From NCBI GenBank assembly GCA_016179745.1, contig JACPCP010000018.1:9258-73257 (forward strand): a DNA stretch of 64,000 nucleotides, in the 5' to 3' direction. Each line of letters starts with the position of its first letter. The first letter of the stretch is position 1. Both the position numbers and the translations under genes were made by a program. Source of the DNA: Candidatus Omnitrophota bacterium. Lineage in GTDB: Bacteria > Omnitrophota > Omnitrophia > Omnitrophales > JACQLI01. The notes beneath the pieces are model-generated. The model had not been told where the DNA came from and searched no databases. It was given only the letters and a program-made list of their open reading frames with translations. This document shows positions 4,340-54,300 of this stretch, in pieces.

Positions 4340-4415
4340 GAAAACAATTCTATACAACTGGTATATAAAAGTAAACACTCATTTCTGTGAGGCGGTGCTG
4401 GGCCGGGGAAAGGGC

Positions 4416-4465
4416 AAAGGCGGGATGCGGCCCCGGAGAGGCTGCCCCGGCCGGGATTAGGCGGA
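4416..4465. repeat. 50-nt direct repeat, copy B (contains stop and last two codons of giant ORF 1)
   Basis: Matches 3080-3129 at 48 of 50 positions. Bases 4457-4465 (ttaggcgga) are the Ser-Ala-stop of the giant ORF on the minus strand. Confidence 0.9.
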
Positions 4466-10400: not shown

Positions 10401-13400
10401 CTGACCCCCGCCCGCGCTTCGGAGCGGGAGGCTAGGGTTGGCGTCCAAGCTGGTTTAGCCCCCTTAACAACCCGGAAGATACCGTGGCTTTCAAGATTAT
10501 GACGGATTTGGTCGGTGATTTTTTTTTGTCCCCCTGGCGTTGAAGGATCGATCACACCAGTGTTTACAGCTTTGAGAAGAGCCTCGACTGTTTTCGCCGG
10601 TTTCTGGTCTTGGCCTAACGACACTTGCCGGAGTGAATAGAACTCGTCGGTGTCCGTATCAAATAAGAGGTGACCGTCTTTTAGCATTTCGAGGAGCCAT
10701 TTCCATTGTTGGGTGGTCTTGAGCTTGTTGCTGCCGGCTCTCACTAGCGCCTCGATGAGTTCCAAATTGTGCAGGAGGACGAGACGGTAGGTGTCGTGGC
10801 GGACCCCCCTGACCCGTTCTTCAATAATCTGGTCAGGCCGACTCAAAAGCTCCAGTAATTCCCCCGAGTCATTCAATCCCTCAAACAAGGGATCTGGACC
10901 GACTCTTTGAAGCTGTGCTTCGAGGCGTAGTTTCGAGCGTACCGCGGCGAGTCGCAACAGCTCGAAATAAAAAGACGGCTCTTGAAATTTTCCAAAGCTT
11001 CCAAGATCGTTGACATCCTCTACATCAAAAAGCACTCCTTGGCGATCATCCCATTCTGCGGGATTCCTCTTGGCGAGAAACTTAAATTGAGAAGCCGCTT
11101 GCTCTTCTGCGATGCGTACCGGGGGCGTTCGATAGCCCCCCCGATATGGTAGAAACGGGGTTGAAGTTAGAAGCAGAAAGAGTGGAATAAAGAAGACAAT
11201 CCAATTCCTTTTTAACTCCGGTTTTAACCTCGGCATCGCGTCGAAGAATCGTCTCGCAAAGGGAACTCTTTGGGAATCTCCTTTTTGGGTCGTGAGAGTG
11301 TCGTCTTCAAGATTCCGCGCTTCGGAGCGGCGGAGGTCCGTGGGCCACTGACTTATCTCCCCCGGAAACGGTCCGTAAAGTTGCATATCTTTTTCCCGCG
11401 GGTCAAAATCAATATTGGACAATGTCTCAAATGTCAGCATTGCACTCCCAGAATAACGTAAGAAAAGATGTGTTTTGTTGTTTATCTTCCCCAAATAGAC
11501 ATGGAGGTAGTAGTCTCCTCCGAACGAACGGTCCTTACCGAATAGTAAATCTCCTTCTTTTATAGATTCCAGGACACTTTCATCCGCTGACTGGCGTGGT
11601 TTCTCAGAGTGAAATTTATTAAGCTGCTCGATGAGCGGAAGGGCATTTTCCCGGAGGCCAGATCTAAGTTCTAGCTCCAGTTCGTTCCTTCGTGACTCTA
11701 TTTGATCGTCAGTGAGGCCCGGCTCGGCGGCGCGGGTATTCCTTGTTATCACAAGGGCCGTTAACACGCTCCAAAGCGTAAGGCCGTCTTTGCCTTTTAA
11801 AACTGATGTTTTCGTCTGGTATTCCCCTGTTTCAGGGTTCCGTATAGTCTTTTCCAATTGGAATCCACCAGGGTTGAGAATAGCTGAAAATACCTCCTTT
11901 GCCTCGAAAGTCAGTAGAGTTTCGTCTAACAGCACAGAAAGCGCGTTCGCGTGTTTTTCCAGTTGTGATGTTAGATCTTGACTCCGTGCTTCGGAGCGGA
12001 GGACAGGACCCTCTCCGAGGTCGCCGGTAAGTGTGTCGAGGGAAGTAGAAATTCCCAATTTTGCGATTTTCTGATTCACCTCGGCTAATGCCAAGGAGGC
12101 GGCGTCAGCTCCCTCTTGGGTAAACTCCTTTTTGGCGTTGTCCGCAATCATCTCGAGAATGGCCTGACCTGTAATGACAATTAACCTGTTTTCATCACCC
12201 GATCCTTTCATTGCCGTAAAGATTCTGTCCCTAAAAGTAGTGATGCCGGGAAATGGCCCTTCTGATTGTTTTGCATCGTCAATGGCATTCCGAATATAGC
12301 CCTCCCATTCTACTGCCAACTTTCCAAGGCCAATGGCGTGCTTCCTAATTTCCTTTGTCGCTTCAGGAAACTGACTGGCAAGCAAACCGTCGGTTTCCTC
12401 CTCCAACATTCCTTCTCGCAACCAATATTTTGCTACCTCCTCAATCCGCTGATTTGTCGGTACTTCTCTGGCCATTTGCACGAGGGCGTTAGCTTTCCGG
12501 AAGTACGCTTTGGCCGCGGACAGGATGGCTTTTTTGATAGACGGCGACTCTGCGTCTGGAACACTCCGCCCTAGCTCCTTACCAAATTCAGGAAAATTAC
12601 CATGTTTCTTTCTTATTTCTCGTAATGTGTTAGGAAGGTTTTCCCAGTTCACGCCTGAGGCGCCATTTTGGGCCTCTGCGTCTGACAAAAGTTTGTTGAT
12701 AGGGAACCCCAACTCGCTCATCTTATCCATAAAAGTCCGCCATGCCTGTTGTTCTATGAAATCCACGGGGACGATGGCAGTCGCCCGCGCTTCGGAGCGG
12801 AGAGCCTCGTCTGTTTGGTTTCGAGCCTCCGTAGCAGAAGATTCGATTTGGCCGATTTCGTCCAAGAGCTCATCCGGAGATCTTTGAGAAGAGACAAGCG
12901 GTTTTGTCAAGAAAATAGAATCGAGAAGTTCTTCAAGCACGACAAGGGCCCTTGTGGCATCGCCCGATTCAAGGAGGCGCGCGGCTTCCTCGGATCGTTC
13001 CTTAAGCTCGGCCAGTTTCTGGCTTAATTCCAGGCTCTCTCTCGGGGCCAGCGCAATTGCCTGGTCAATTTTGGGCAAGACCTCCTCTTTAAGCGCCGTT
13101 AGCGCTTCCTCCGATTCAGTCGCCCGCGCTTCGGAGCGGTCAGGGAAGAGCTGGGGGAAATCGGTTTGAAGGGAAGCGATTGCCGAGGAGACTTCTTCCG
13201 GGACCTGGATGGGATCCATGAATCCTTGTTCGGCATAACCAGGGAATCTGCGGATTTCGTCAATCCCTTTTTGAATCTCCAGGATCGCCGTTGCCTGATT
13301 GAGAGAGGAGGCGGTGAGGCGAAAGGGACTTAAACTTACCACTTTCCGGATTCCGATTTTAGACAGTGATCTACCCTCGTTAAATTGTTTAACCAGTGAG

Positions 13401-15949
13401 CGGCCGCCCCGTTTTTGAGCCCGGCCGTTTTGAAGAAGGAGGATCGTTGCATCGTCTCTCAGGCGCCCCTCCTTGCGGAGCTCATCGACGATTTCCCTTA
13501 CATATCTTGTGTTTTCGCCCGTATTGGTTGCCTTGAGCTCAGGAATTATGTTTTCCGCACCGACGCCGGCTTTTAACATTTGGTCGGCAAAAAATTCTGC
13601 TTCAGGCACCTCAGTCTCAACGCCTTGTTTTAAAAGAGTGAAGGGGCGATACCACTCAGGCCGCTTTACAGGGCCCCGGCCGCTCGGGACAATAATGACA
13701 TCAGGGTTTTTGTCCTGCGCCTTCTTTGCGATCTTTGCAGCACCCTCGGCCGCCTCCCGATAACTTGAACCGAAAACGATGACAAGATCAAAAGGCCCTT
13801 CCTGAATCCAGCTTTCTCCTTCAAGAGGTTTCCACTTGTCGGTTTTCACGTCATAGACTTCCCTGGCCGCAAGAAAGTCAAAGAGGACCTGGGCGTTTTC
13901 GTCTAGGGCTTCTCTCTGTTCTGTTGCGGGCCCGGTTTGAGTAAAGTGACGGAGTTCGGAGCGGGAGAGGGGGAGTGCGACGGGAGCCGGGACAAAGGAT
14001 TCTTGAACCAGCCGGCTGGTTCCAATGGCAAAGCCCAGGGGTTTCCCGTCCAAAATGGGAATGAGCCGGTCTCCCTCCGGGTTCAATCGGAGCTCAGCCC
14101 TGCGGTCGGTTCCATACAAGCTCTGGCTGAAATTTGATGCGAATTTCCCCGCAGAGATTTTCTTTTCATGGGCCACAGTCGCCAGCCCCTCCAGAACGAC
14201 CCGGAGTTCACTTCGCTGCTTTGCCTGACGGGTGCTTGGGGTCCACATTCGGCCGAACCGAACTTCGGCAGGCTGAAAATGAGCCGCATCATCAAGGTTG
14301 GCCGTATCGAAAGCGGTTTTCTTTTCGCCGAGGAGGGCAGAGACGTAGTCCTCGGAATTGACCTTCTCCGTGATGTGGGGGGTCAGGATGGTGTAAGGAA
14401 TCTGCTTTTCACGAAACGTGTGAGAAAGGCCGGCCGTGTGGAAGCCGCCGGTGATGAGGATGGTAATTCCCCTCATCCTAGCCCTCTCCCCCTTGGGGGG
14501 AGAGGGGAGGGGTGAGGGGGAGGTAAGGATTTTTTCCACCATCGTCTCTTCACGCTGTTTGGCGAGTTCGTAAAACCGGAGGGCCTCCCCGAAGATCGAT
14601 TCCAGCGTGTCGGAGTTGGAGGGAACCAGCTTCCTTTTTCCAAGCGGCGTTCTCTCGTGGAGCGCCTCCAGTTCTACGAGAAAACGAATCAGCGGCCGCT
14701 CGTCCGGATTTTCGGTTTGGACTTTGGCGTAATCTTTTGGCGTGAGCTCCAAATCAAACAATCTTTCATAAAGCCTTTCCTTATGGACGAGCCCGACAAA
14801 CTTTTTGTCCTCTGCCTCACCGGAGACGGCGGACATGATTTTGTCAAAAAGCCTTTCGATTTCTTCAAAGAGCCTCCCGGCCTCGAGTTCACTCTGGAGA
14901 ATGGCGGCTTCGAGGTAGCGGGTGAAATCGGGATACTGCTCGAAGGCAAACCCTTTTTCGAGCGTGGCCCCGACAAGGCGTTCGGCGAGATAGCGGGGGA
15001 GATCGTTTCTCCGGAAGCCCGGGTCATAAACCATCCCTGATTGATAAGGAGAGAAGGAGAGATTTTCAAAACCTTCGACGAGGTCCCGATCGAGACCGAA
15101 GCTCTTTAGGGAACCCACGAGATTTTGCCGGTCCGCCTGCACTTTTTCGGGGTTGAGCTTCGCCTCGATTTCCTGCAGGCGGAGGAGCCGGATCATCTGG
15201 GGCCAATCGAGCTGGCTTTCAAAGTAGCGGATGTCGATGCCGAGGATCGACCGGGCCGCCCGCTCCAATTCCAGCGCATAGGAGAGGAGCTCCATCTGGC
15301 CCGAGTCAAAGGCCTCTCTTGAGCGGAGGAGTTTACGGGCCTCCTTTTCAAGAAGCAGGGTTTCAAGACGGTCGAGAGAGCCCCGGAGGCCCTTTGTGAA
15401 TTGGGCGGTGGCGGGCCGCTGGCGCATCACATATTGAAAGCTGGTGAGGTTCCTCTGGTAAAGCGCCGGGTCTTCGATTCCGTAAGCGGGGATGTCCCTT
15501 GTCGACTCGACCAGGAAAAGCTCGGCGCCGGTGAGCTCGCCCTTTTCGACGAGTTTCTCGGCGACACGCACGTTCAGGCGGTTGTCTTCAAAAAATCGGA
15601 AGTAATCGGGATTTAGCTTCTCGCCCGCACCTTCGATGAACATCGAATCAATGCCGTATTTCTCGTCGAGGAACTTCAGCAGGGCGTAGATTTTTTTCTG
15701 AGTTTCGGGATGAGAGTGGACGCTTTGAATATGAATGAGAGGAGGCGCTGAACCCTTTTGGTGATCCGGGATAAAGGCCTCTTCGATTTTCGCCAGCTCA
15801 GAGGGAATCCCCAGAGGAACGAAGGAAGAAACCATCGGAAGGCCCTCCGGCTGGGCCAATACCACAGGCGAAGGGATCAGCAGGGAGGCGAAGAAACAGA
15901 CCGCCACCGAGCCCGCTACAAACTTTTCACATAGCTTAAGTAACCGCAT
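4457..15949 (-). CDS. Giant modular secreted/membrane-associated protein 1 (3830 aa), punctuated by RSEAR motifs
   Basis: Uninterrupted ORF from ATG 15947-15949 to TAA 4457-4459. It has an N-terminal signal-like segment (VAVCFFASLLIPSPVVLAQP), internal TM segments, coiled-coil regions and a DUF218 module. It ends in ...IWRSA. Confidence 0.8.
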   Translation of the reverse strand: MRLLKLCEKFVAGSVAVCFFASLLIPSPVVLAQPEGLPMVSSFVPLGIPSELAKIEEAFIPDHQKGSAPPLIHIQSVHSHPETQKKIYALLKFLDEKYGIDSMFIEGAGEKLNPDYFRFFEDNRLNVRVAEKLVEKGELTGAELFLVESTRDIPAYGIEDPALYQRNLTSFQYVMRQRPATAQFTKGLRGSLDRLETLLLEKEARKLLRSREAFDSGQMELLSYALELERAARSILGIDIRYFESQLDWPQMIRLLRLQEIEAKLNPEKVQADRQNLVGSLKSFGLDRDLVEGFENLSFSPYQSGMVYDPGFRRNDLPRYLAERLVGATLEKGFAFEQYPDFTRYLEAAILQSELEAGRLFEEIERLFDKIMSAVSGEAEDKKFVGLVHKERLYERLFDLELTPKDYAKVQTENPDERPLIRFLVELEALHERTPLGKRKLVPSNSDTLESIFGEALRFYELAKQREETMVEKILTSPSPLPSPPKGERARMRGITILITGGFHTAGLSHTFREKQIPYTILTPHITEKVNSEDYVSALLGEKKTAFDTANLDDAAHFQPAEVRFGRMWTPSTRQAKQRSELRVVLEGLATVAHEKKISAGKFASNFSQSLYGTDRRAELRLNPEGDRLIPILDGKPLGFAIGTSRLVQESFVPAPVALPLSRSELRHFTQTGPATEQREALDENAQVLFDFLAAREVYDVKTDKWKPLEGESWIQEGPFDLVIVFGSSYREAAEGAAKIAKKAQDKNPDVIIVPSGRGPVKRPEWYRPFTLLKQGVETEVPEAEFFADQMLKAGVGAENIIPELKATNTGENTRYVREIVDELRKEGRLRDDATILLLQNGRAQKRGGRSLVKQFNEGRSLSKIGIRKVVSLSPFRLTASSLNQATAILEIQKGIDEIRRFPGYAEQGFMDPIQVPEEVSSAIASLQTDFPQLFPDRSEARATESEEALTALKEEVLPKIDQAIALAPRESLELSQKLAELKERSEEAARLLESGDATRALVVLEELLDSIFLTKPLVSSQRSPDELLDEIGQIESSATEARNQTDEALRSEARATAIVPVDFIEQQAWRTFMDKMSELGFPINKLLSDAEAQNGASGVNWENLPNTLREIRKKHGNFPEFGKELGRSVPDAESPSIKKAILSAAKAYFRKANALVQMAREVPTNQRIEEVAKYWLREGMLEEETDGLLASQFPEATKEIRKHAIGLGKLAVEWEGYIRNAIDDAKQSEGPFPGITTFRDRIFTAMKGSGDENRLIVITGQAILEMIADNAKKEFTQEGADAASLALAEVNQKIAKLGISTSLDTLTGDLGEGPVLRSEARSQDLTSQLEKHANALSVLLDETLLTFEAKEVFSAILNPGGFQLEKTIRNPETGEYQTKTSVLKGKDGLTLWSVLTALVITRNTRAAEPGLTDDQIESRRNELELELRSGLRENALPLIEQLNKFHSEKPRQSADESVLESIKEGDLLFGKDRSFGGDYYLHVYLGKINNKTHLFLRYSGSAMLTFETLSNIDFDPREKDMQLYGPFPGEISQWPTDLRRSEARNLEDDTLTTQKGDSQRVPFARRFFDAMPRLKPELKRNWIVFFIPLFLLLTSTPFLPYRGGYRTPPVRIAEEQAASQFKFLAKRNPAEWDDRQGVLFDVEDVNDLGSFGKFQEPSFYFELLRLAAVRSKLRLEAQLQRVGPDPLFEGLNDSGELLELLSRPDQIIEERVRGVRHDTYRLVLLHNLELIEALVRAGSNKLKTTQQWKWLLEMLKDGHLLFDTDTDEFYSLRQVSLGQDQKPAKTVEALLKAVNTGVIDPSTPGGQKKITDQIRHNLESHGIFRVVKGAKPAWTPTLASRSEARAGVRVFRIDSSIELTEPEAKRKQPEIDGWLHQYAKLGGNQKFDKLASFLREVHSKEQVNKSFLASRVRPVLGYDEPRLNSIVLGLVQDIWLTGTGVERPKKARDQLVDYIAHATRVLLTRDFVVHLVEEALDGNTGAKEELVGWSFLISAGFIDTELVDKILERVTPDNSIEVRNRASEVMEQFIHASVSSTLRPDVLLDYLTRLKDLEGPFWRFEHPISVLEVAITRNPDLSTDARITKFVRELRNQEGATRFETQLNNLLEKLKSRSEARMSTIQKVLLTATAAVLCGAGCIASKRTSETLQQILNKPSPQSTVVATEQKAGPRHEPIPPDDAVKRDLMNRLFDLYDRIQRQKQRLRNSSPALEGEEFLLDGPITLIFEVVRLVPNLDGRDAEALKKELEKMEKALGELENDVDKIVSEENKKKARRKLDRLKKKMEGLSDDLDLDVEIIDEGRRISVSVPKGISEVEQEMERLRRQLFGEIPEAEEEVEGGELVVMPELEKEKLTPRPIEAPRPEEEPLPEDLKKEFKALELVAEEGKRVVEKKQASGKTTEKGLKPQEPVELLEPPLGEEQVVREKPEPTEKAVPSQEKPQEITVESRQPPDNKKEELLRRARDLKQRLVHLSEKEKREPAPPELAPEEETPAVSPATIPTEVTVTLTRVIEEIIEKEVDLPGIEKDMEELEKAIEELESRYRKLPQPEREKLIRWVLDRLERDGKGPGVRIVNEEEVVREVSIKDIVDEIRRILQEEKPKPGPLRLTPLPKTPPEKSAPKEAQPLDKQDLMERALRLSDRIQSNRDKLRKQLSPLEDQEQLREEEAQDLPLILELLKLVPELGGGDAEKLAAELNQLDTELAEIARAIDEFLAEEDPFEAERKLDRLQKKTDEVRLRITRLVVNLGGEVPFVLPEEIAKIKDELERLRQELEARKRGEEVPWEKSTRPSGQTPATPFFEIPSFVFNGIGYFFIFAVALVAAILIVTSQRVWDFLYWDVYGRIKDAFVRTVFWVKEQFEGFLYWISKSYRPRVIGEIVTFYSPDAPGIPYSSSETADYLSLQDGRIRSIYGGLSFLEKMTNSLTQQGLGLSFFDEMRREASAIKSAYESVFYQIDALLEENGLLLTESAFRRLVNSNDDRSDELRRLFGLQKSEAYSLLGSPVPAFLKALTNRLEELNRLTDEFERKFEAALPSFRDAEIRRAKSNSLWQLSLAEIAKSDSWDTKYERLLIEAELNLGAFASGLNEAQAKISPVRENMGEWRALQWGALSRLALLQRRLRGTHPELSDQLKPIIDHLSSPRSEARAAESKTSRVRFEKRADGSRVVTLKDVTLTAPASPSTNLSWKLRALRFPVTGSTDSDSLTLFSSLGDFANQDRIGAALPVDIIHLKDLSVGLPQDKKTFTGVLQASLEKQGRPVPAIQASRTGSDVKIHFDSIQIPVPPDKPEALTRALRAFGVPEETLNKVRAQFKEVETLATVIANALPRSEARQQKPGKEVQPLTRFYAQSLLLIDWVRRIVQAMQESRKKGGILPSEPLIPMDLFDPVEREAALLAAQGIGQRELMDQLLHPKPDTKSFRLIQKALKALGIKLGAEFDLQRDLPQKSEALKTVRKLSESLSKKDLPESRSELRDEGPLAVESAGLLTSPEQLEKMIGQSAGVVRLESPAGKIFVGKTRPFVKPRGAALILPGLNQLALQIPAGFFPEGWSASNALSLVINIANVTEGIEIFDPRINDELPELAHAMILALRENEARNLGIQEQIDEVRPSPKTPFGAQLVKGENRPARSAVFLEGVPTVEETVARLSPALLLGGNVHVTLVIPYGVPADPVRLESLRQEIGKILGSLGGSKKVEILQPIQPGPDGVAQLISEMSDQYEKWAAAQPGAYIEPEFAINVPGALRSELGIDEALQKIRGKKPIVFIERFSGLLEKSRAALLAAKHSQDALPANLLRGFRQEGRFVIVEKENLDQFVPADQYERAFKALLQIWRSA
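6530..9595 (-). other. Module of giant ORF 1: Met plus hydrophobic anchor, E/K-rich coiled coils with an internal ~110-aa duplication, then a second TM segment
   Basis: The module starts MSTIQKVLLTATAAVLCGAGCIASK immediately after RSEAR. It contains the repeated unit ...DRIQ..R..LR...LVP.L.G.DAE.L...RKLDRL.KK (about 9061-9415 and about 7730-8080). A TM segment GIGYFFIFAVALVAAILIV follows. Confidence 0.6.
13139..13948 (-). other. DUF218 (YdcF/ElyC-like) module of giant ORF 1
   Basis: DLVIVFGSS...IIVPSGRG...EAEFFADQMLKAGVGAENIIPELKATNTGENTRYV follows the DUF218 signature order. The module is bounded by RSELR (13949) and RSEAR (13124). Confidence 0.6.
14360..15949 (-). other. Signal peptide plus TraB/GumN/Tiki-like N-terminal domain (paralogous to the N-terminus of giant ORF 2)
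   Basis: IHIQSVHSHPE...YGIDSMFIEGAGEKLNP...YGIEDPALY...ILITGGFHTAG (GGFH at 14438-14449) is colinear with the same motifs in giant ORF 2. The fold assignment is tentative. Confidence 0.4.
14469..14520. repeat. Palindromic element family A, copy 2 (in frame in giant ORF 1)
   Basis: Sequence is cccctcatcctagccctctccccc ttg gggggagagggg aggggtgaggggg. It encodes SPSPLPSPPKGERARMRG. This stretch is absent at the homologous point of giant ORF 2 (...KSQTAIVLAGGFH). Confidence 0.8.
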
Positions 15950-16188: not shown

Positions 16189-16743
16189 GTGAGCCAGAAA
16201 GGAGTTACGATTTGGTTTACCGGGCTGCCAAGCTCGGGGAAGTCCACCATTGCCCGGGTGCTTGAGCGGCGCTTCCGCCAGGCAGGGCTCAAGGTCGAAC
16301 TTTTGGATGGGGATGTGGTCCGGACGAATTTGAGCAAGGGTCTCGGCTTCTCCAAGGAAGACCGGGACGCCAATATCAAGAGGATTGGGTTTGTTTGTCA
16401 TCTTCTCACCCGGAATGACGTGATCGCCATTGCGGCGGCCATTTCCCCTTATCGGGAAGTCCGGGATTACAATCGCCGTCTCATCGGGAATTTTGTGGAA
16501 GTTTACGTGAAGTGCTCGATCGACGAATGCGAGAAGCGGGACGTGAAGGGGCTTTTCAAAAAGGCCCGGGCCGGCGAGATCACGGGCTTCACCGGCGTCG
16601 ACGACCCCTATGAAGAACCTCTCCATCCCGAGGTCGTCTGCGACACGGAAAAGGAATCCGCCGACCAGTCCGCCGAGAAGGTGATTAGGAAGTTGGAGGA
16701 ATTGGGGTATCTTAGCGAAGCGTCGTCACACTCGTCATTCTGA
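16189..16743 (+). CDS. cysC: Adenylylsulfate (APS) kinase
   Basis: GTG start preceded by aaggagg. VTIWFTGLPSSGKSTIA P-loop and LDGDVVRTNLSKGLGFSKEDRDANI are hallmark CysC motifs. Confidence 0.9.
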   Translation: MSQKGVTIWFTGLPSSGKSTIARVLERRFRQAGLKVELLDGDVVRTNLSKGLGFSKEDRDANIKRIGFVCHLLTRNDVIAIAAAISPYREVRDYNRRLIGNFVEVYVKCSIDECEKRDVKGLFKKARAGEITGFTGVDDPYEEPLHPEVVCDTEKESADQSAEKVIRKLEELGYLSEASSHSSF

Positions 16744-16811
16744 GGCCTCCGAAGGAGGCCGAAGAATCTCAACTCTGAGATCCTTCGGCCGCTACGCGGC
16801 CTCAGGATGAC
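16734..16811. mobile_element. MITE-like nested-palindrome element (family C, gtcatyctgag termini), copy 1
   Basis: The termini gtcattctgaggcc / ggcctcaggatgac are inverted, with an inner gaagaatctc / gagatccttc pair. The cysC stop codon (16741-16743) lies inside the element. Confidence 0.7.
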
Positions 16812-29756: not shown

Positions 29757-30343
29757 AGAGACAGAACTGGCATTGGGACATTAACCTCTCCTATGGGAAG
29801 ATCAAAGAAATTTTGAAGCGTGAAGATGATCCCCGTTTCCCGAGATTGGCAGGGGCCCTCCTTTCCCGTGTTCCGGAGCCCGCCGAGGTCTTTGGGCTCA
29901 TTTCTCCAGCCGCCTTTTGCCGGCGCTACCGGGCGATCGAGAGAGAAATCCTGTCCGACGAATGGACAAGAGAGAAGGCCGCCTTTTGGAAGGCCACCTG
30001 CCTCCGACTCTCAAGAGAGCTTCGGGAACGGGGTGAGAAAATCAGAAAACCGGGAAAAATCAAATTGGACGATTTTGACCGAACGCTCGTCTCGAAAATA
30101 AAGCAGTGCCGGAAAAACGCCCTCTTGTCTCAAAAAGAATTGGCCCAATGGATGGGCCTGAGCCAACAATACATCTCAGGAGTCGAAACGGGGCGGGAAA
30201 GGGTCACGATCGATTTCCTTAAAAGATTGGCGGGAATGACCCATCAACCGATCGAAATCGTCTTTCAAACCAATTATTCTCCGGAAATTAGGCGGAGCGG
30301 GCGAGGGCGGCCCGGATCTCGGGGTCGAGGGCGAGGCGGTTAA
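29753..30343 (+). CDS. Protein with C-terminal XRE-type HTH (possible cognate antitoxin/regulator)
   Basis: LLSQKELAQWMGLSQQYISGVETGRERVTIDFLKRLA is an HTH_XRE core. Its start overlaps the AbiEii stop. Its 3' end overlaps the giant ORF 2 3' end convergently by 56 nt. Confidence 0.55.
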   Translation: MKRQNWHWDINLSYGKIKEILKREDDPRFPRLAGALLSRVPEPAEVFGLISPAAFCRRYRAIEREILSDEWTREKAAFWKATCLRLSRELRERGEKIRKPGKIKLDDFDRTLVSKIKQCRKNALLSQKELAQWMGLSQQYISGVETGRERVTIDFLKRLAGMTHQPIEIVFQTNYSPEIRRSGRGRPGSRGRGRGG

Positions 30344-33300
30344 AAAATTCCGCAATCTGAGCGAGCCCCCTCGGAGTGACCCGCCGGAATGCCAGGGGAT
30401 TCCTGGGGTCCTTTTCGAGCATCTCCCAGAGAAATTTCGAGCGGTGAACGGCTTCAATCAGCCGGATAAAATCAGGTACCCTCAAACCGGAAAGACCGAT
30501 GACGGAGGGTTCGGCGAAGACGCCAAACCCGTGGAAATTACCGGCGTTTGTCAAGTCCAGGGGGGTGACTGGCGACAGGAAGAAGCCAGCGTCTTTAAAA
30601 TCAGGAGACGTTCGGCTGATTCGACCCGGGTTCAAAGGATCATTTTCTCGATACGGCAGCGGAACTACGCCGGGGGCAGCGGCCGCAATCTTGCTAAAAG
30701 GGATTTGCGCCTCTTTGCCGCCCGCAAAGGCAATACCGACCCTCACCTCTGACCGCACAGCCTCACGCACAAAATTCTGAATTTCTTGAATCGCCTCATG
30801 GTCTGCAAGGTGTTTCGATAGGGCGAGGTCCAGAACCGTAGCGCTTGAGGGCGGGATTCTGAAGCTTGGATCAAAGATGCTGCTCCGGGCCGCCCGATTC
30901 ACGAGCGAGGAAAAAAGAACAGGATTGCGCTGGAGTCCCAAGAAGATCGCCCGGGCGTTTTCAGAGAAACGGGCCCGCTCTCCAAATTTCAGGGCCTCTG
31001 CCGTCGAGACCCGCTCCGTGGCGGCGCCGAGGATGAGAATCCTCGAGGCAACCCCCCGGAAAAGATCTTTAATCCTGACGGGCTCGATGACGGCCGGGTC
31101 TATTTTTAGAGTTGCCGCTAGGATAGCCGCCGCCTCTTCCGCCGCTTGACCAAACCTTTCCGAATCAAGCCACTTGAGCATTTCCTCGGGCGTTTCCTGT
31201 TTCATCATTTCAGCCGCAAGATTCACAAGGGACTTCCGAACCTGGTCCCGCACGATTTCTTTTCGGTTCTTCGATTGTTTTTGCAGCCGGTCGACGAACC
31301 GGTCAAAATCCCCGTTCTCCGTGTAAAGCCGGACCATTTCCTCTGCCGTCAAATCCGGGAGGAATATCTGAAACTCTCCAGCCGCTTCCCTTCTTATGGG
31401 AGCGGCGTCTCGCACCTCCGCCCGCTCCCTGGGCGCCTCCGTTTGGAAAGCCTCAGACTTGGCACTTTCAGAAATGGGAGGGTGACCGGGCACTCCTCCC
31501 AATGCAGTTTCAATCGCGGCACGGAGCGCGTTGCGTTCATTTTTTTCCCACTCACCTAAATCAGTGCGACGGGTCTCCCGATGGAGTCTCTTGAGAGTCC
31601 GTGAAAGGAGATCCCGGCCTTCCTTCTCGCCGTAGGCCTGATACAGGCCGGCGAAGATATCTGAGTAATCGGAAGGGTAAGTAAGGATAAGGTTTCGCAG
31701 TCTAATCAAGATAAATATGAAACGCCTGCCGGAGACCGGCAGTCCCACATCGACAACCCGCACCGTCTTGGAAGAGGCTTTGAGATTGAGGGAGTTAGGA
31801 TCGCGGATTGTCCACCGCCCCCTTGTCTTTTTAAGAATCTGGAAGAGCCGATGCGAGGATTCCCGGGTAACACGACTGGCCTCCTCCTCGATTCTCTCTG
31901 GTTCCGTTTCCTTAACTTGATCCAGATAGCTACTTAGAGAAAGGTAATTCGGTTCATCAATCAATTGTTCAGTCCACATCCCGTACCTTGGACTCCAGGT
32001 CCCCAGGGTCTCGGCGCTGGGGTCCTCCGGTTCATAGAGTTCAATGAGGTGGTCGACCTCCGTTCCCGCATCCCTTTTCCGGGGGAACCAGTTCAGGGCC
32101 ACGGAATAAGGCGTTTCCCCATTTGTCACGTGGATATCCAATCGAAAAACACGCTTTTTCCCGCCGGCATTTAGAAATCGGATTGAGACTTCACGAACTT
32201 CCTGGAGAGGAATTACAACGCCGAACAGGGCCCAAAGGGTTGACTGGATGAGATAGGATCGTCGAAGCGCTTGCTCGACCCTGCTACGAAATTGCTTCTC
32301 AAGCGCCGGGCTTTTATCAGATGAAAGTTCTCCGACAGGAGTGAATTGAAAGGCCGCCTTCGTCTGCGGAGAGTCCCAGAAACTGTTCAGTTGGCTTCGA
32401 AAATAGGTTAAGACCTCCTCCGCCCTCTCACTAATTTCTTCAGGCATTCCGTAACGCCGTCTCCCGTAGAGCTTCCAATAGGTCAGAGCAGACCGAAGTT
32501 TAAGATAAAGGAGGTGACTACCTTCGATCCGGGGATCGATCGAAATGGTTCGGACCTGCTCTAGGAGAGCCATTATTTCCTGGGGGGCGGATGCGTCCCT
32601 CAGTTTTTGAACCAGTTCCTGATTTCGTATCTCAGCACGGGGTTTGGAGTTTTCTTCAAGAAATGCGATCACGCCCGCCAGGGTTGCCACTGAAGGAGAG
32701 AGCGGACCGATAAAACGAGGGGCGGTTTCCTTCTTAAGTCTGTCAATAAGCTCCCGAAGCCAGCCCCTGAGCGGGGAACGGAAGTTCCGAGCGCTGACAT
32801 AAGCCTCCATCGTGATAAGAAACATGGCAATATCTTTAACTTCTCTTTCGAGGCCGCGTTCCCAAATCCAACGGAATACCTCGTCATCTTTTATCGTATC
32901 CTTATATTTTTCGATGTCCCGATGTTGGGGGGTGGATGCAATGGCCCAGTCCGTGAATTGGAAGCCGCCGCCCTTACGGAAGTGGATTTCCTCCTCCCCG
33001 AGGTCACGGTGAAATACGCCTTTATGGTGGAAGAGCTCAAGCGCCCGAGCGATTCTTAGAACGTCACTTAAAACATCTTTTTCATCCCGTCCGTGGCGTG
33101 GACGAAATCGGGGGTTCATCCGGTGAGCCGCCGTTTCGCCTTCAATCATCTCCTCAATCAAGTAGGTCTGGCCGGTCTTGGGAGAGGGACGTTCTGTGTC
33201 CCACCCGGTTCGTGCGGCCGCTTTTTGGATCTGGGCAGCTTCTGGATCCGTCAGGACGCCGGAACCGACAAGGCGGGGCAGATGGGGGGCCAGTTCTTCA

Positions 33301-45300: not shown

Positions 45301-48300
45301 CGTCTCCGGTTAAGCTCCTCGGCGATCTCCCTCAGACCCTTAAGAGTTTCATCGGTGCCGTCGAGTTCCTCTTCAATATTCAAATAGAGACGATAAAGGA
45401 ACGCACCAAACGCCGCACGTTCTTTACGAGTTCCTGAGTCTACCCGTTTGCCGGAGAGCGTTTCTTGGATACCTCTCATTTCCTGAATAATCTTTGCAAG
45501 CTTGAGCCGCTTTCTCCAGTCCTCTTTCTCTTCTTCGAGGAGGTCGCTTTCAATTCGGTCCGCCAACTTTTTTAGATCATCTATTGCGAATTTTTCCTTT
45601 CTCTGAATTGTGGCAAAAGCCGGACCCCCCTTCTCAAGGACCAACACACGGAAATAGCGTTGGATATCGCGCAGGATTTCGTTTGGCTTCCTCTGCCGCA
45701 CCTCGGAGCGGGGGGGAGATTCGAGTGTTTCGGCCTGATCGAGGATCTCTTTGATGGGCTGGGCGAGGGAGGGCTGGGAGCGTGCAAGCCGATCGGACAA
45801 AAACGGGATATAAAGCCAGAAGACTTTCCTCTCGGCTCTGAATTTAGCAAGATGGGTTCGGATTTCATTTACCTGACCGAGAAACTTTTCTTTCTCTTTG
45901 AACTTGGAGGCGCCTCGAAGGCGTTCTTCGATCAGGGCCTCAAGCATTGACTCAAATTCGATTTCGGCCTCGGTCCACTTTTCATAATCCACGGCCTCTT
46001 GGACAATCGAATCGGCTTCGAAGCCGCTTAGAGAGAGTTTTTGGTGAGTTTTGACATAGAGCTGACGCAGGGTCTCCAAATCAGTGCGGCTTGCCGCGAG
46101 GGCGTTAACGGCTTCACGGTTCAACTGTTGAATGAATTCAAATTTTTGGATCACCCGCTTTTCCCAATCGGTGTATTGTCTCCCCGAGCGAGCAAACCGG
46201 ATCGCCAAAGGTCCCTCTGTGTAGCTTTCCGAATCGTCGCGCCAGCGTTCGATCGTGATTGGAACGAGGGTTCGTTCTCGAGGGTCATAAGGCCCCGTTG
46301 CGCTCAGGAAGATATCAATGAACTTGTCAAACTCATCCTGAGGATGGGCTGTGCTCTTGACCTCCTCCAAAAGTTCGCTGAGATACCCAAAGAAATCAGT
46401 GATTGCTTGGATTTTTACTGAAGGCGGGGGAATCAAGATAGGGACCTCCTGCTCAGCGGGGGAAACCGGGGAGGCTGGTTCCGGCGGTAAAGGTGCCACG
46501 GTTTGGTTGATGATCCAGGGACTGGGAAGCCTTTTGGGTCGGCGGAAGAGGCGGGCCACGGGGACGGTCAGCGCTGTGAAAAGTTCGAGAAGAATAAAGC
46601 CGGCGAATCCTGCAAGCAAAAGAACCCCGTTTCTGAGAAAACTCATGAGCGCAAAGGGATCCCCATAGCGGCTTGTCTCGAGCATCATGACCACTTCGCC
46701 CTGAGGGGGTTGCGTAATCTCTGAGGATTTACCCTGAGGAATCTGCGTAATCGCCGGGGCTCCAGCGTCATGAAGTGAGGTCTCTTTAGGTTCGCCTCCA
46801 GGCGTTTCAACTCCGCTTCCTGGTTGACCCCGGCCCGAATGATCAGGCGGCATTGAATCTCCGGCCTTCTCCCGCAGCTCCCTCGCCGTATCCAACATCC
46901 ATTCCGGCGTTCCCTCTCCTTCAGTGAGCATCTGATTTATCTCTTCTTCAAGCTTGTTAACCGCGTCTTCGATTATCTTAATAAGCTCAGTAAGAGAAAT
47001 CACAATCTCAACTTTCCTTTCCGTAGATGTCCGCTCGCGAAGCTCGCGAAGCTGGCGAAGCTGGTCAGGTTCCCGCTTAGGGCGTCGCACGACTTCCCTC
47101 TTGGGTAGTTTTTTCATGAGCTCTTCCAGGCGATTTAGCTTTTCTCTAAGCTGGTCCAGCTGTTTTAATAACCGATCGATCGTGTTATCGTCCAAATCGA
47201 GAATCTTTAGCTCCTCCAGCACACTGTCCAGCACGTCGTCCATCCCTTCTAGGTTCCACAACGCACCGATGGCGGGGTACAACTTCGAGCGCAATTCCAA
47301 GATGCGCCGTTGTAACTCCTTCATCTCCCGGAAAAGCCGTTCCTCCTGGGACTCGGCGGGCCGTTTTTCTCCCAAAATATCAAGCTGAGAATATTTAGGC
47401 GCGCCTTCTGCACCGGAGGGAGCATCGGAGGGATTGGGGGCTGTTACCTGAGATAGCATCTTTTGAATTTCATCAAACGGATTCTTGGGGGGAGTATCTG
47501 GAAAACGAATAAAGGGACCGTCAGGTCCTTTCAAATCCAGTTTTTTCCGCTGAAACACAGGCCAATCAACCTTTTTGCCGGATTGGTAGATAGGCCTTAA
47601 TGCAGGCTCAAGTAGAGTTAACAGCTCCTGGGCTTCCCGGAGGAGGGCACGGATATTTTCTTCCCCCCAAGAGCGTTCTCTATTTTCATAACTTTCTTTT
47701 AGGCTCGCCATGATCCGATCCAGCTCTTTCGCAAGTGGGACGAGGCGGCTGCGGTCGTTCGATGGAATCCAGGGGAAGAAACGAGACAACCTATGTGCCA
47801 CATCCTTCGCAAACGCGAGGACTACTTCCGGGCTCGCCTCAGGTTCTTCCGGTGTTAGCGGGGGAGGCTCCTCTATGCGTTTCTCACCCGGCCAGTCACC
47901 TCCGGGCAGCACCTCCGGCGTTTGATCCGGCGGTTTCAGGGTGCTGACTGGCTGCGGCTCCTCTTTGGATTGGGAAGACGGGGGCGCGACACGTGTTCCG
48001 GAGGCCCCTTTTCCTGCCGACGCTTGTGCTCTAGACGTCAGGTCTTTGCGAGCTTGGGGCGCCGGTTGGTGCGGCTCTGATTTTTCCGGGGCCGTTCCCT
48101 CAATAGCCGGGGGCTTTTGGACCTTTTCCTGCTTAAGGTGTCTCGTGGCTAACCGGAGGTCCCGGCGGGAGGTAATCTTGCCTTCTTGCACTTGGCGGAG
48201 AAGCGATTTTTTTTCCTCTTTCGTGGTTTTTTTCGCTTCTTGGATTTTGTTTTCCAGTTGTTGGAGCTTACGGAGGTACCGGTGCATCTGGTGGGCTGCT

Positions 48301-51300
48301 TTCCGGATGGCGGAATCCGGGTCATTGAGCAGAACCTCGATGTCTTTCGGTTCCCTAGCGTTGGCAACCTGGTTAAACTTATCCTGGTGAGTCTCTTCCG
48401 GCGAACCTCGGACGGGATTCAAAGAACTTCCCAGAATAAGAGCAGCAAGGCCGACGCCGACCACTTTTTGCCAAACCGAAGGGCCCGAGATCGCCTTGCC
48501 CCCGCCCAAAAATCGGTCCGGGCCTTGCAATGACGAGGGTTGTTCCATGGCCATCTCAGTGCCGGCAGGGGAACCGGAAATCGCCGTATTATGCGCAAAA
48601 ATGCCGTTGCCGATGAAGTTGTGGGTGCCCTGGACTTCGATATCGTAGACATGCTCCAAGCCCACATAGTCGATCGAGACAATCCGGTCCCAGAGGAGAT
48701 CAGAAGCCGGGTTGGAAAAGGGGATAGGCAACACTACTCCCAACGTTGCGTTGCCTGTTCCCTTTTCCTGCGGAGCGGCTTGGGCGTAGGCAGAAGGGAG
48801 GCTGAGTAGTCCTCTCCAGGCAGTTGTGGTATACTTTGCCGCATGAAACGACGAAACGGTTTCAACCGCATTGTAATTGATCCGGCCGTTCGCTTCGGGA
48901 AGCCTTGTATCAAGGGGACCCGAATTACGGTTGGAGACGTCTTGAATCTCCTGGCGGCGGGCTACACGGTGGACGAAATCCCCGAGCAGTATCCTGGGGT
49001 CACCAAGCAGGACGTTTCCCAGGCGATCGAATTTGCGAGTGATCTGGCTGAGCATCCCGCCAAAGTAACAAACCTCACATAGCGCGTCTCTTTCTCTGTG
49101 AAGATTCTTGCCGACCACTGTGTCCACACCGATGTGGTTCTGGCTTTGAGAGAGGCGGGGTTCGAGGTCATCCGCGTCTTTGAAAAGGGCATGGCCGGCG
49201 CCCCCGATAAGGATATTTATGAATACGCCCAGCGGCATTCCATGGCCGTCCTCAGCTACGACTTCGACTTTGGAAATGTGGCCCGATTCGATATCCTCCG
49301 TTCGCACGGGGTTGTCCTGGTCTATGTTGAAAGGATGACGAGATCCAAGATTATCGAGCGCACGGTCGGTTTCTTTGAAGAGAACCGCCGGCGGAATCTC
49401 TCCGGAAAACTCCATCTGATTGAGCCGCACGGGACCGGCACCTGGCCGGGGTAAACCCGCCGGCACCCCGATCTCATTGCCGACCCTTAACTCCTTCACC
49501 TTGATCCAGGCCCCAACATTTCTCGACAAGCCCGGAGTCAGGTGATACACTTTTTCCAGTGACGGAAAGGAATTACGCATGAGGAAGAACGGGAACAAAG
49601 CACGCAGCCTTAGAAAAACAAAACCGCTGGTCCCCACAAAGCCTGACGTTGGCCACTTCTCAAAATTTGCCTCCCGGGCGGGAGGAATTTCCTTGCCGGA
49701 CAGGTTCCGGGCCGCCGTCGCCTTTGATTCGGAGAAAAGACCCCGTTGGTTTCTCTTCGATATGTTTGCTTTTTGGGAGCTCCTTTGCCGGATTGATAAC
49801 GTACTCTCCAAAACTTTGTCTGACAAAGAGTACTGTTCAACAAATCCCGTCGGTGGCCTCATTGACGAGATCGAAGGCCGCTGGCCGCTCAAAGAGGAGT
49901 CCAAGTCGGCCGTCCGCCGCGAATACGAACGGGCACTGCGGGACATAGCCGCTGGCCGATTCTCCCGTCTCACTGTGTGATCTATCAGTTTATCTTGACT
50001 CGCCAGGCGGAGGAGGACCTGGCGAGATTTCCCGATTCCCTGTCGCACCCGATTAGAAAAAAGCTTGCTTATTTTCTCTCGGCCTCCGACCCCATGAAAT
50101 TTGCCAAGCTCCTTGTGAACCTGCCCCCTGCGACCCACCGGTTCCGCTTTGGAGACATTCGGATGAAGTTTTTCCGGGACAAGAATATTTTCTACATCAC
50201 GGGAATTGACCACCGAGGTAAAGTCTACCGATAGCGGCACCCCGATCTCATCGCCAACCCTCAACTCCTTCACCTTGATCCAGTTTCCTTCTTTTGCCTT
50301 TTGACTTTTGCCTTTTTCCGCCACACTGCGTGACGGATCCGCCAAGCTGTGTGGCGGAGACTTGACGAGATACGGATGATTCGCCGTGGTCTTGATCGAT
50401 CTCCCGGAGGCGGTCGTCAAGCGGTAGACAGGCTTCACTCCCATATCAAGCAGGGCATTAATTCTCCGTGGCTCAATCTTCCCGGTTTCTTCATTTAAGG
50501 AAAGAACCCGGTCTCCGGGCCTGACTTCGGTAATGGGGATTTCTTCAAGCCTTTCGTTATCCTGACGTCCCCGACGCGTGTCATCCTGAGTCCCGCGAAG
50601 CGGGGCGAAGGATCTCAAACCCTGAGATTCTTCGCCCGCCAAAAGGCGTGGCGGGCTCAGAATGACGGGGTTGGTGTTGCGTATCACCGGCAGTCTCGTA
50701 TCCCCCGTGACGCAAAGGCCTTCCGGATCCTCGGAGCTTCTCACCTCGGTTCTCTGAAGCTCTTCGAGCGAAGCAGACCGCGCCTCGGAGCGGCGGCGCG
50801 CAATTTCTTCACCGAATATCCGGCCAATCTCTTTTTCTATCAGACCGGGCAAGCTGACATTTGCAGGGACCCCGTTGCGAAGGAAAGGATGACCGTAGAA
50901 GCTGCCTCCGAGCGGGACGGCCTCAATCCGATCGTAGTCATCCGTGCCTCGCACACGCCTGATGGCGAAATTACGTATACGGGTGTCTGGCTCGGCTTCA
51001 TAGGCTTGCAGCATCAACAGTTCTATTTTTGTTGGGTCTCCTACGATTGCCTGGGCAATCTCCAGAGCCAATTTTTGCAGTTCAGTTTTCTGGGGTTGAG
51101 TGGCGGGCTCTTCTTTGAAGAAAACCCACCCTTCGAAGATGCGGGTAATTAGGTTAGCGTCGACCGGAACCTCCTCTTCGCCTTCATCCTTTTTCAGAAC
51201 AACTTTTTCCTCGCCGGTTTTCACCCCGTTTAATTCTTCAAAAGCCTTGCGGAGCTGGCCGGCAAGTCCGGAATCCGTGACCGTGAATTTAAACCCGCCC

Positions 51301-54300
51301 TCTTCGTTCTTTTGAGACATTACGGCCCCGCTCTGATAGGCCAACAACACTTCTTGGGCCGCGAGGTCAAGGAGATGCCCCTCTGGATCGCTCACCTCCG
51401 GCCGTTTTCCTCTCAGGAATTTCAAAAATGGGATAACCGGATCGACTTGGGCGCGCTGCAGAGTTCCGGCTGAAGGGGCCGGAGGAATGTCGGGTGCTTG
51501 GGTCGGGACCTTAAAGTCGGTTTTGATAATTTTGTGATAAAAACGGGGGCCCGTAGTGGATACGGTTGGCTTACTTAACGTGATATCCTGCCAATGTAAA
51601 TCAGAGACTTCAGCAGTCCTGGGGTTGACCTTCCATGTCACACGCACCGCAGGGACCGGCGTTTCCTGATAAGTAGCTTTGGATGGTACTTCGGTCAGGA
51701 ATGTGCTCCATAGCTTATCTGCAAGGGCTTTCAGAACATGATGACTTGAGCCCCAGAACGCCTTACTGAGGCGGAATAACTCATACACAGCCAAAGCCTC
51801 AGTTTCTTCTAATTGAATCTCGAGGCCATTCTTTTTCAGGGTCACCTTGCCGGTTCCGTCCACAGAAATAGTGCCCGGCACCTCTCTGAGGATCCCTTTC
51901 CCCAGCTCATCTTGCCCCTGGATTTCAAACGTAAGTAGATCGTCGCCAATTGTTACGCTGACATCCCTGCCACGGTACTTCATCGTAGTAGCGAACCCCC
52001 GCACCTCGGCGCGGAGCATGGACTTGGCATTTGCCTTTAAAAGTTGGGAATTTGCCGCTGTCATTATTGCCTCGGTAGATGGGGAAAACACTCTGTTCCC
52101 TTTTGTAATTTCGTAGACTACATGAACGCTTCCGGCATCCTGACCCTCATCATCTAGAGCGACGATAAACTGTCCGTCAAAGCGCCAATAGGTCCCCGAA
52201 TTGTCCTCGAGCAGATCTCCTTTTGTAAGGATCTGAAGGATACCTCTACCTGATTGCTGAGCTTCGGCCATCTCTGAATCAAACGCCACTGGGCGTTCTT
52301 TCCTCTCTTGCTTTATTAAAGCTTCTCTTCGTGCATCTCCGTTTCGATCCTCAAACCGGCTCCCCCGAAAACCCTTCTCATAAGTTTTCCCCAAAACCTC
52401 CTGCGTCTTCCGCACCTCGGCGCGGGCGGAGACGACGGGTTTTTCTGGAGAAAAGGGGACAGAGCCCCTTAATTGTTCAAGGACGGCGGAGGCGACGGCA
52501 CTTTCCGGAGACTGGTCCCGCAATTCCGCCCGGATCGATTCGGGAAGCGAGGCCGCAATGCCCCCGATTTTGGCCCGGAGTTCATTTCTAATCATCCCTT
52601 CCGGCGGAGACTTTGTTTCCGGGCTGGCCGATTTTTGAGTGACTTGCTCGATCGACTTCGCAAGAGCGCGGACTTCCGGCCGTCCCGCCAGGAGACCCGC
52701 CGGAACTCTCCCCGCAAGTTCCTCAAGCGTTTCTCGAACAGCGCCGGGTTTGGCCAGCACTTCAAATTCGGATCGTAGCGGGCGAGAAGGAAGGGCTCTG
52801 GTTCGGAGGAAATCCAGGATTTCGGCTCGGGGTCGTGAGGTTGGAAAAAGCGAAGCGCCGGCCAGGTGCATGAGGGCGGCGGGTTTTGGTTGAGGGGTTT
52901 CGCCCAAGAGGCGGGAGACGTTTTCGACCGTGAATTCTTTTCGGTCCGCCAATTGCCGGAGGCCGGAGACGAAGGAATTAAATTGGATTTGAAATTTTCC
53001 CCAGAGGGAATTGACGGCCTCCTCGGCGGAGCTCTCGAGGGCCTTTTCCAGCTCTTTTTGGATTTCCTCCCTCGATCTAGAGGCGCCGTCGGCGCCGAAT
53101 TTGCCGTGGTAAATTTTTAAAAGGAGATCAATGTAACGAGTGTATTCGCCGGCCTCACCGGTGCGGCCTTCGTCGGCGAGCTTGCGAATCACCTCGTCAC
53201 GCCAGAGTTTGAGATTCTGTTTGAAGTCCGGCTGATTGAGCCCTGCGACGAGTCGCTCCGTCGAATGTCTCACGAAGGCGTCGTAAAAGGTCGTCTTGAG
53301 ATATCGCTTGTAGGAAAGATCGCCTTTCATCACGGCCTCGTAACGCTCTTTTCCTTCGAGCGAACGGATCCTGGGCGTGACGACGGCGTAAGAATAGCCC
53401 GCTTCCTTCAAACTTTTCTCAAACCCTGTTGAGTGAAACCCTCCGGCAAGGACAATCGCTGTTTGGCTTTTCGTTTTCTTGAGAAGTTTTTCGAGATTTT
53501 CGTGAAACACCCGGTCCCTTTCGAGGACAATCCGGTAAAATTCAAGCGCCGGCCGGACCGCTTCCCGGTTAGAAGGATCACCCAGGAGTTCGAGGTAGGA
53601 ATCCGGGGCTTTTTGATAGGCGTCGAGCCGGTCTCGATCGAGTTCGAGACGGACGAGATCCTTGAGGAAGCGGAGTTTTTGGTATTTGAGGGCGAGCGAG
53701 CGCTCCTCCGGTGTTTTGATGAGGGACTGGTCAGCCTCTGAGAGAAAGGTCTTTAGCTCGTCAAAAAGTTTTGTGCCCCTGATCGTCGAAAGGGTTTCGA
53801 CTTGGCCGATCAAGGCTTGCATTTGGGGACTCAATTTGGGTTTGAGACCGAGGGGCCTTCCTGCCTCAACAAGATATTTCAGGAATTCGCCCAAATCCAT
53901 TTGATCGGTGACAAAGGCCTGAGTGCGCCGGTTAAATTCCATCTTGCCCTTCTTGTCGAGCTGGGCGAGGTGTCCTTTTCGGAAATCTTCCGCCAGTCTT
54001 CGGACCTCAATTTCCAACTGCTTTTTGGGCAGAGCGGAACCCTGCTTGAGGGAATGGAGAAGCTGGGCCAAGTGGGGATAGTTGATTTCAGAAGGTGCGG
54101 CGGCCTTCAAGGAGGAGGCCAGGTAATTCAGGAGCTCAAACAAATGGGAGCGTTCATCTCTAAAGGCCTCCACCTTTTCGTGAAAGGTATTCAGATCCGG
54201 CGAAAAAGCCTTCTTCCGTTCCCGATCCAGGCCTGCCTTGATCTCCGCCAATTGCTTGAGAAGTCCGTCTTGATTTTGTGCGGCCCTCAAGTAGGCGAGG

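Follow-up and report, generated by a model that had tools for sequence, protein, structure and literature searches.

A DnaB-like mini-intein with antisense toxin–antitoxin genes in a giant open reading frame of an Omnitrophota bacterium

The intein and its antisense cargo

The window analysed in this study is a stretch of 64,000 nucleotides (nt) from a Candidatus Omnitrophota bacterium (assembly GCA_016179745.1, contig JACPCP010000018.1, positions 9,258 to 73,257), and all coordinates below are those of the window. A giant open reading frame (ORF) of 8175 amino acids (aa) lies on its minus strand (30288..54815) with the reading frame unbroken, and an intein occupies aa 1368–2076 of the encoded protein. 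Within the intein, two cassettes of small genes resembling toxin–antitoxin (TA) operons are found on the opposite strand. The intein spans CVTGDTRLPV to GIFAHN and is followed by Thr; tblastn across the window gave an intein count of one. Its features are as follows:

48588..50714, minus strand: complete intein, 709 aa, open frame throughout (Pfam and TIGRFAM scores)
50685..50714, minus strand: block A, CVTGDTRLPV, with the Cys1 nucleophile (codon 50714–50712), from the sequence
50364..50543, minus strand: conserved N-terminal core (EIPITEV...TTANHPYLV), aligning to residues 18–80 of the Npu DnaB mini-intein 4o1r
48588..48704, minus strand: C-terminal core with blocks F and G, SDLLWDRIVSIDYVGLEHVYDIEVQGTHNFIGNGIFAHN (TIGR01443 and profile alignment)
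48585..48587, minus strand: Thr+1, residue 1 of the C-extein (Thr in 49/49 complete relatives)

The features that define a class-1 intein were all found, namely Cys1, TxxH, a terminal His-Asn, a +1 nucleophile, a HINT fold (by sequence homology) and scores above curated thresholds: Pfam Intein_splicing (PF14890) gave 78.5 bits (cut-off 35.8), TIGR01443 intein_Cterm 33 bits (cut-off 15.6) and TIGR01445 intein_Nterm 28.8 bits (cut-off 24.5). Cys1 is invariant in the family alignments A4 and A5, block B reads T-A-N-H at 50387–50376 with T, N and H invariant or near-invariant in relatives, and blocks F and G end in ...GTHNFIGNGIFAHN, with His-Asn at 48593–48588. Once the inserts are removed, the core amounts to about 131 of the 709 residues and is collinear without gaps in 21 relatives. 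The nearest solved structures by sequence are the cyanobacterial DnaB mini-inteins 4o1r (Npu) and 1mi8 (Ssp), and the core profile aligned with 4o1r end to end over positions 10–131 (E 1.9e-31). The solved bacterial intein-like (BIL) domain 2lwy matched the same profile with E 5.5e-7, and no match of the intein to Pfam Hint_2 was found at E<0.1. On these sequence grounds, the element at 48588–50714 is a canonical DnaB-like class-1 mini-intein. An earlier note on this DNA, made by reading the letters without database searches, had pointed out Cys1, TxxH, the terminal His-Asn and Thr+1; the coordinates that it gives are exact, and the Pfam and TIGRFAM scores bear it out.

Both cassettes are on the plus strand and occupy the slot in which DnaB-type inteins carry or have lost their endonuclease, which is also the canonical split site. 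The genes and signals are as follows:

49977..50234, plus strand: RelE/ParE-superfamily toxin gene, 85 aa, cassette 1, codon-aligned antisense to the intein (PHROG 1213)
49579..49980, plus strand: putative antitoxin gene (orf4), up to 133 aa, upstream of the RelE-like gene with a 4-nt overlap (conserved partner)
49523..49551, plus strand: sigma-70-like promoter match TCGACA-17-TACACT with TG, upstream of orf4 (consensus match only)
48843..49082, plus strand: DUF433 antitoxin-type gene, 79 aa, cassette 2, antisense and codon-aligned (Pfam DUF433, 85.5 bits, E 2.1e-24)
49098..49454, plus strand: DUF5615/PIN-like toxin gene, 118 aa, cassette 2, antisense and codon-aligned (Pfam DUF5615)

The RelE-like protein matched PHROG 1213 'RelE-like toxin' over its full length (E 1.5e-5), and its family profile A2 matched the solved RelE toxins 2khe (1.4e-11) and 3g5o (4.5e-10); with Pfam ParE_toxin, the window protein alone stayed below threshold and one family member passed at 41 bits. 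The small gene orf4, preceded by a Shine-Dalgarno-like motif GGAAAGGA 7 nt ahead of its ATG, had no family match in Pfam or PHROG. RelE/ParE homology together with a small overlapping upstream gene in an operon is the arrangement of a type II TA pair. In cassette 2, both proteins score above the Pfam threshold (DUF5615 74.7 bits, E 6.5e-21, full length, and also PIN_10, 33.9 bits), DUF433 comes first, and 15 nt separate the genes; an extended -10-like motif TGGTATACT, spotted by eye, lies 8 nt upstream of the DUF433 ATG. As judged from homology and gene arrangement, the cassettes are two type II TA operons, one of a RelE-like toxin with a putative antitoxin and one of DUF433 with DUF5615/PIN. 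The minus-strand translation across the cassettes (488 aa) had no Pfam match, and an exact-sequence look-up returned no called-gene record for either of the two toxin sequences. The earlier note had spoken of inserted cassettes and had missed that they are TA operons of the opposite strand, the most unusual trait of the locus.

Relatives of the intein and the constraint on both strands

A protein search with the intein gave 43 matches, the best of which were Omnitrophica proteins annotated as 'hypothetical, partial', with unrelated domain content and some with two inteins. In GTDB species representatives, 198 intein loci were confirmed by tblastn, mostly in Omnitrophota and also in Elusimicrobia, a Chlamydiae metagenome-assembled genome (MAG), many genomes of the candidate phyla radiation (CPR)/Patescibacteria and some DPANN archaea. 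Of these, 78 loci were fetched, and 49 complete open inteins were parsed, the window copy included; about 6–8 relatives are broken by stops. Residue +1 is Thr in all 49 complete copies, as selection for full splicing predicts, and the search pattern had permitted T, S or C.

Antisense TA genes are present in at least 27 of the 49 complete inteins. DUF5615 occurs in 14 (13 besides the window) and DUF433 in 15, all antisense, and direct inspection of L002 and L003 found the same DUF5615 arrangement with or without DUF433. The RelE-like toxin occurs in 11 inteins (10 besides the window); an orf4-type partner is kept in 7, in each case ahead of the RelE-like gene and with an unchanged relative frame, and 3 have a partner of a second type. 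MazF/PemK (61 bits), PIN_2 (66 bits) and DUF5647 are single antisense cases, and a probable HicA/HicB pair was recognised in another intein by eye and from a weak Pfam match. The window intein is the sole copy among the 49 with two cassettes.

The intein must still be translated through the overlapping TA passenger, and therefore both strands are under constraint. When the antisense frame is codon-aligned, the intein frame is stopped only by the TA-gene codons TTA, CTA and TCA, and we estimated the chance of an open frame by resampling synonymous codons from the host's own usage with the amino-acid sequences fixed. For the window, this chance was 0.42, 0.18, 0.88 and 0.21 per ORF, giving a product of 0.014. 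Across loci, the geometric mean per ORF was 0.014–0.05, and the summed log10 chance reached -24 for DUF5615, -19 for DUF433, -16 for RelE and -9 for orf4; in some hosts, TTA or CTA makes up about 50% of Leu codons. In a control of free-standing DUF433–DUF5615 pairs (distant, metagenomic), 6/6 had stops in every antisense frame. Of 110 pairs compared over the same DNA, 107 showed higher conservation in the TA frame than in the intein frame. Each TA family has one fixed relative frame, DUF433 and RelE being always codon-aligned antisense, which points to inheritance of intein and cargo as one unit. Taken across the family, these codon statistics demonstrate selection for an intein frame that stays open through the TA genes. 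Such avoidance of stops is understandable only if the cassettes are read through by ribosomes, which favours a single continuous precursor that splices in cis over a split intein.

In Omnitrophota, the clade has proliferated in long proteins that evolve fast. Several genomes contribute more than one intein locus, with up to 2–3 copies per protein. Nucleotide identity of the copies reaches 91–93% within genomes (mean 0.76) and has a mean of 0.64 between genomes. The multiple copies within genomes and even within single proteins indicate the behaviour of a selfish element and not of a host processing device. No precomputed match to a homing-endonuclease domain was found in any of the closest 30 protein matches.

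The flanks of the Omnitrophota inteins read ...(D/E)PxGL|C and N|T(Y/A)x, and the inteins of CPR lie within a repeat motif, ...GNVGIGTTxPxxKLHVEGQ|C...N|TYLxGNVGIGTT. In CPR and Elusimicrobia, the intein was observed at a single position of this repeat (GNVGIGTTxPxxKLHVEGQ | TYLxGNVGIGTT) in very long proteins, sometimes 2–3 times per protein (L016, L020, L021, L035, L038, L043, L058 and others; P0016–P0024), and by its sequence this position looks like a short reusable target site. Many copies lie at the ends of MAG contigs (e.g., L005, L011, L015, L021, L026 and L042), in keeping with an intein whose many copies disrupt short-read assembly and cut giant genes short.

Other genes were also seen inside inteins of the family. 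In L003, a gene for a 23S rRNA intervening-sequence protein (Pfam 137 bits; 3869–4267, plus strand) lies in the N-terminal loop of the intein at 3823–5595, on the sense strand in another frame, and the intein frame is open across it; it was the only real match among sense-strand ORFs in alternative frames inside inteins. An antisense ORF of about 66 aa recurs in the endonuclease slot of shorter inteins; its product has two hydrophobic segments (...EFIAK..DLGK....GLASYFF...), and it was found in L012 (intein 4523–5389), L020, L027 and L058, and by eye also in L033, L037, L038 and L003 (6290–6496); it could encode a small membrane toxin. The CPR relative P0022/L044 (intein 294–1508) has an in-frame NYN domain (PIN-like nuclease, PF01936) in the endonuclease slot, a domain that might serve as an endonuclease of unusual type.

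The linker site in the giant gene and smaller inserts

Inteins are typically, though not by definition, inserted at conserved sites of essential proteins; the intein studied here lies in a repeated linker with orphan flanks. Two copies of the linker were compared:

50715..50798, minus strand: N-extein linker cassette RRRSEARSASLEELQRTEVRSSEDPEGL, about 92% identical in DNA to its paralogue
38847..38981 (aa 5279–5323), minus strand: intein-free paralogous linker cassette (...RSSEDPAESRRTISESAG...), from DNA comparison

The identity of about 92% extends across about 75 nt, and the intein-free copy reads ...SSEDPAESRRTISESAG.... Homology of the occupied and empty linkers ends at GAGGATCCGG and restarts at ATTTCCG (TISE/TAIS region); this break and restart around the intein make the copy at 38847–38981 a likely picture of the empty site. 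The C-extein begins with TAISGSPAG, and a hydrophobic segment comes next at aa 2114–2132 (48420–48476). The 568-aa module upstream of the intein had a single weak match (E 5e-7) in an exhaustive HMMER search of 1.84 billion representative proteins. A word-indexed search of 8000 word-sharing candidates found no homologues of the 600+600 aa of spliced exteins, and a metagenome scan found no relatives of the 300 aa preceding the intein, no orthologue and no empty-site allele. The empty-site paralogue and the orphan flanks together support a non-conserved linker location. In this respect, the earlier note read the locus well: its repeated linker cassette as N-extein, its C-extein followed by a transmembrane segment and its placement of the intein outside any conserved enzyme site agree with these comparisons.

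The linkers at 38847–38910 and 41310–41372 have in common a perfect DNA repeat of 64 nt (GCGGAAAGTCGGCGTACCATTTCCG...CGCTCCGAGGTGCGG) with an internal palindrome CGGAAA...TTTCCG, and from their sequence the linker cassettes resemble DNA of a repetitive or mobile kind that is kept in frame. In the giant protein, the pattern R[SA]E[VAILMT]R (RSEVR, RAEVR, RAEAR...) occurs 21 times, for the most part where modules seem to join (positions include aa 798, 935, 3036, 3518, 3922, 4461, 4497, 5318 and 6036), and may be a protease site or the translation product of a DNA linker element that is repeated. The N-terminal module of about 600 aa (aa 13–624) is common to P0011 (L002), P0025 and P0008 from Omnitrophota, with 25–31% identity, and each of these has an intein of the same clade further downstream at non-homologous distances of about 220–900 aa.

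In addition to the TA cassettes, smaller inserts and repeats were found within the intein:

50580..50666: palindromic element resembling a miniature inverted-repeat transposable element (MITE), 87 nt, with terminal inverted repeats GTCATYCTGAG (second copy present; DNA fold z = -4.5)
50317..50358: perfect-register hairpin of 42 nt, whose arms of 21 nt are 86% complementary and which encodes the SPPHSLADPSRSVAE loop that follows block B (repeat search)
50235..50283: 49-nt direct repeat, copy 1, encoding the intein strand WIKVKELRVGDEIGVP, directly before cassette 1
49461..49509: 49-nt direct repeat, copy 2 (WIKVKELRVGNEIGVP), directly before cassette 2
48714..48768: inverted repeat (arms of 24 nt, complementarity 83%) that separates the C-terminal core from the DUF433 promoter region

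The MITE-like element is in frame (29 codons, stop-free) between block A and the next strand, and its second copy is intergenic at 16734–16811, where shuffled sequences led us to expect none. The loop after block B, in which the hairpin lies, is hypervariable among related inteins. The two copies of the 49-nt repeat are 94% identical and 774 nt (258 codons) apart. They encode a duplicated strand, WIKVKELRVG(D/N)EIGVP, and since the repeat duplicates an intein strand, each cassette comes after one strand copy. The inverted repeat at 48714–48768 could be an operator or a cassette boundary. An Rfam scan of 47500–51800 found no known RNA element and only one sub-threshold chance match.

Proposed model, rival explanations and comparison with known systems

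Considering all the above results, we regard it as fairly probable that the element is a selfish mini-intein that splices in cis, with frame-open selfish DNA in its loops and antisense TA operons in its endonuclease slot. In the proposed model, the giant gene would be translated straight through the antisense TA DNA, yielding a filler of about 490 residues without a recognisable domain. The N- and C-terminal halves of the intein would then associate and the intein would excise itself, joining ...SSEDPEGL to TAISGSPAG... (junction peptide SSEDPEGLTAISGSPAGTEMAMEQPSSLQGPDR) and leaving the host protein unharmed. The TA operons would be transcribed independently from their own promoters. They probably serve for addiction or stabilisation where other inteins rely on a homing endonuclease, and could also guard a gene so rich in near-identical linker repeats from deletions. 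That the intein splices, that the TA genes are active and that they confer addiction are thus predictions from sequence. We suggest, more tentatively, that this may be an undescribed composite selfish element in which an antisense type II TA operon replaces homing with addiction and stabilises both the intein and the repeat-rich giant gene. Recombination between dispersed inteins may also help to shuffle modules among the giant proteins of Omnitrophota and CPR.

Several points weigh against this model. The evidence for splicing and for TA expression and toxicity is computational, and a single-sequence AlphaFold2 prediction of the spliced core had a predicted local distance difference test (pLDDT) score of 49, which was uninformative and not used. 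No endonuclease was found that would carry the intein to new sites. No orthologue of the giant gene was found either that would let occupied and vacant alleles of this site be compared between strains. Complete inteins were themselves selected by their open frame, and the ratio of 49 to about 6–8 broken relatives only partly removes this ascertainment bias. Finally, the window copy is the most heavily loaded of the 49 (709 aa, two cassettes, a duplicated beta-strand motif and a D-to-N change) and could fold poorly. This last point leads to an alternative that we regard as unlikely, namely that the window copy is a decaying, splicing-dead intein or local pseudogene with recent junk in its cassettes and an open frame by luck. 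The unique load, with the MITE-like element and hairpin in addition, the broken relatives and a single-copy open-frame chance of about 0.014, which is not astronomically small, are what such decay would leave. However, every catalytic residue is intact, all four classes of insert are stop-free and multiples of three in length, the remainder of the 8,175-codon ORF is intact, and codon avoidance throughout the family cannot be luck. The earlier note leaned towards a BIL-like domain that would cleave the giant polyprotein at a module boundary without ligating the exteins, as part of a processing logic. A linker of a variable, probably membrane or secreted protein is indeed where BIL domains occur, the R[SA]E[VAILMT]R matches at module junctions hint at processing, and side cleavage is possible in Thr+1 inteins. 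Nevertheless, we consider autoprocessing quite unlikely and do not retain that view, as the core groups with true inteins rather than with 2lwy, Hint_2 was not matched, and cleavage alone would not require the +1 nucleophile that every complete copy keeps; moreover, the same element recurs in many unrelated proteins, up to 2–3 times in one, as a selfish element would and a processing device would not.

The content of the endonuclease slot admits another explanation, in which DUF5615 (PIN-like) with its DUF433 DNA-binding partner is a free-standing homing endonuclease and not a toxin. DUF5615 does occupy that slot, which in P0022/L044 holds the PIN-like NYN domain, and the clade reaches many sites without a recognisable homing endonuclease. 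We judge this improbable, because elsewhere the slot holds RelE, MazF and probably HicA-type toxins, families known as RNases and not as DNA endonucleases, and because DUF433–DUF5615 pairs are common outside inteins. It is also conceivable, though very improbable, that the intein is effectively split, with halves from separate transcripts interrupted by convergent TA transcription and joined by trans-splicing. The cassettes do lie at the canonical split site of DnaE/DnaB-type inteins; yet without read-through there would be no reason for stop avoidance, which is strong, and no start signal for the C-terminal half was seen. The preferred model of a cis-splicing, selfish mini-intein accommodates the stop avoidance, the invariant Thr+1 and the multi-copy distribution.

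The cyanobacterial DnaB mini-inteins 4o1r and 1mi8 resemble the window intein in class-1 residues, HINT core and canonical point of cargo insertion. In contrast to them, its site is a repeated linker within an orphan giant protein rather than DnaB or a conserved enzyme site, its clade is multi-copy with Thr at +1, and antisense TA operons stand in its slot where a LAGLIDADG endonuclease would be or from which one has been lost. Like BIL domains, it is a HINT domain that occurs in several copies per genome, in proteins that are variable, non-essential and probably surface-associated, whereas the core is far closer to true inteins and the +1 nucleophile is conserved. Homing-endonuclease inteins and group I introns are likewise self-removing elements with a second selfish gene in a dispensable slot, although the passenger in the window is a putative addiction module that overlaps the intein ORF on the opposite strand. 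TA modules are known to stabilise superintegron cassettes and genomic islands, where they lie between genes. The window cassettes resemble them as type II TA operons in repeat-rich, deletion-prone DNA and differ in lying inside a coding sequence, where the intein would make them harmless at the protein level.

We found no literature on inteins in Omnitrophota, Omnitrophica or CPR, on inteins with TA or antisense genes, or on DUF433/DUF5615 with inteins, and two papers on Omnitrophota giant genes made no mention of inteins. Antisense TA cargo in inteins therefore appears to be undescribed within the limits of the literature searched, and it combines known kinds of element, an intein plus a TA operon, rather than forming a new category. 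Inteins usually occupy conserved sites of replication and repair enzymes and are maintained by homing endonucleases. The present clade would depart from both habits, spreading via non-conserved linkers of giant proteins with addiction modules in place of the endonuclease. The coding on two strands is clear-cut, with strong statistics behind it. As one strand needs only to stay open and the other encodes proteins, these loci offer a natural test bed for the evolution of overlapping genes. They also suggest that, where very long ORFs dominate a genome, coding DNA is open to colonisation by selfish genes, with the intein as the way in for TA genes, and that gene callers miss antisense TA genes. 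Furthermore, a core of 131 aa with room for an arbitrary insert of 570 residues could be of interest in protein engineering.

Elsewhere in the window, the RnfC gene is 100% identical to the protein of a Candidatus Omnitrophica MAG, and a second very long ORF of 3,830 aa lies on the minus strand at 4457–15949.

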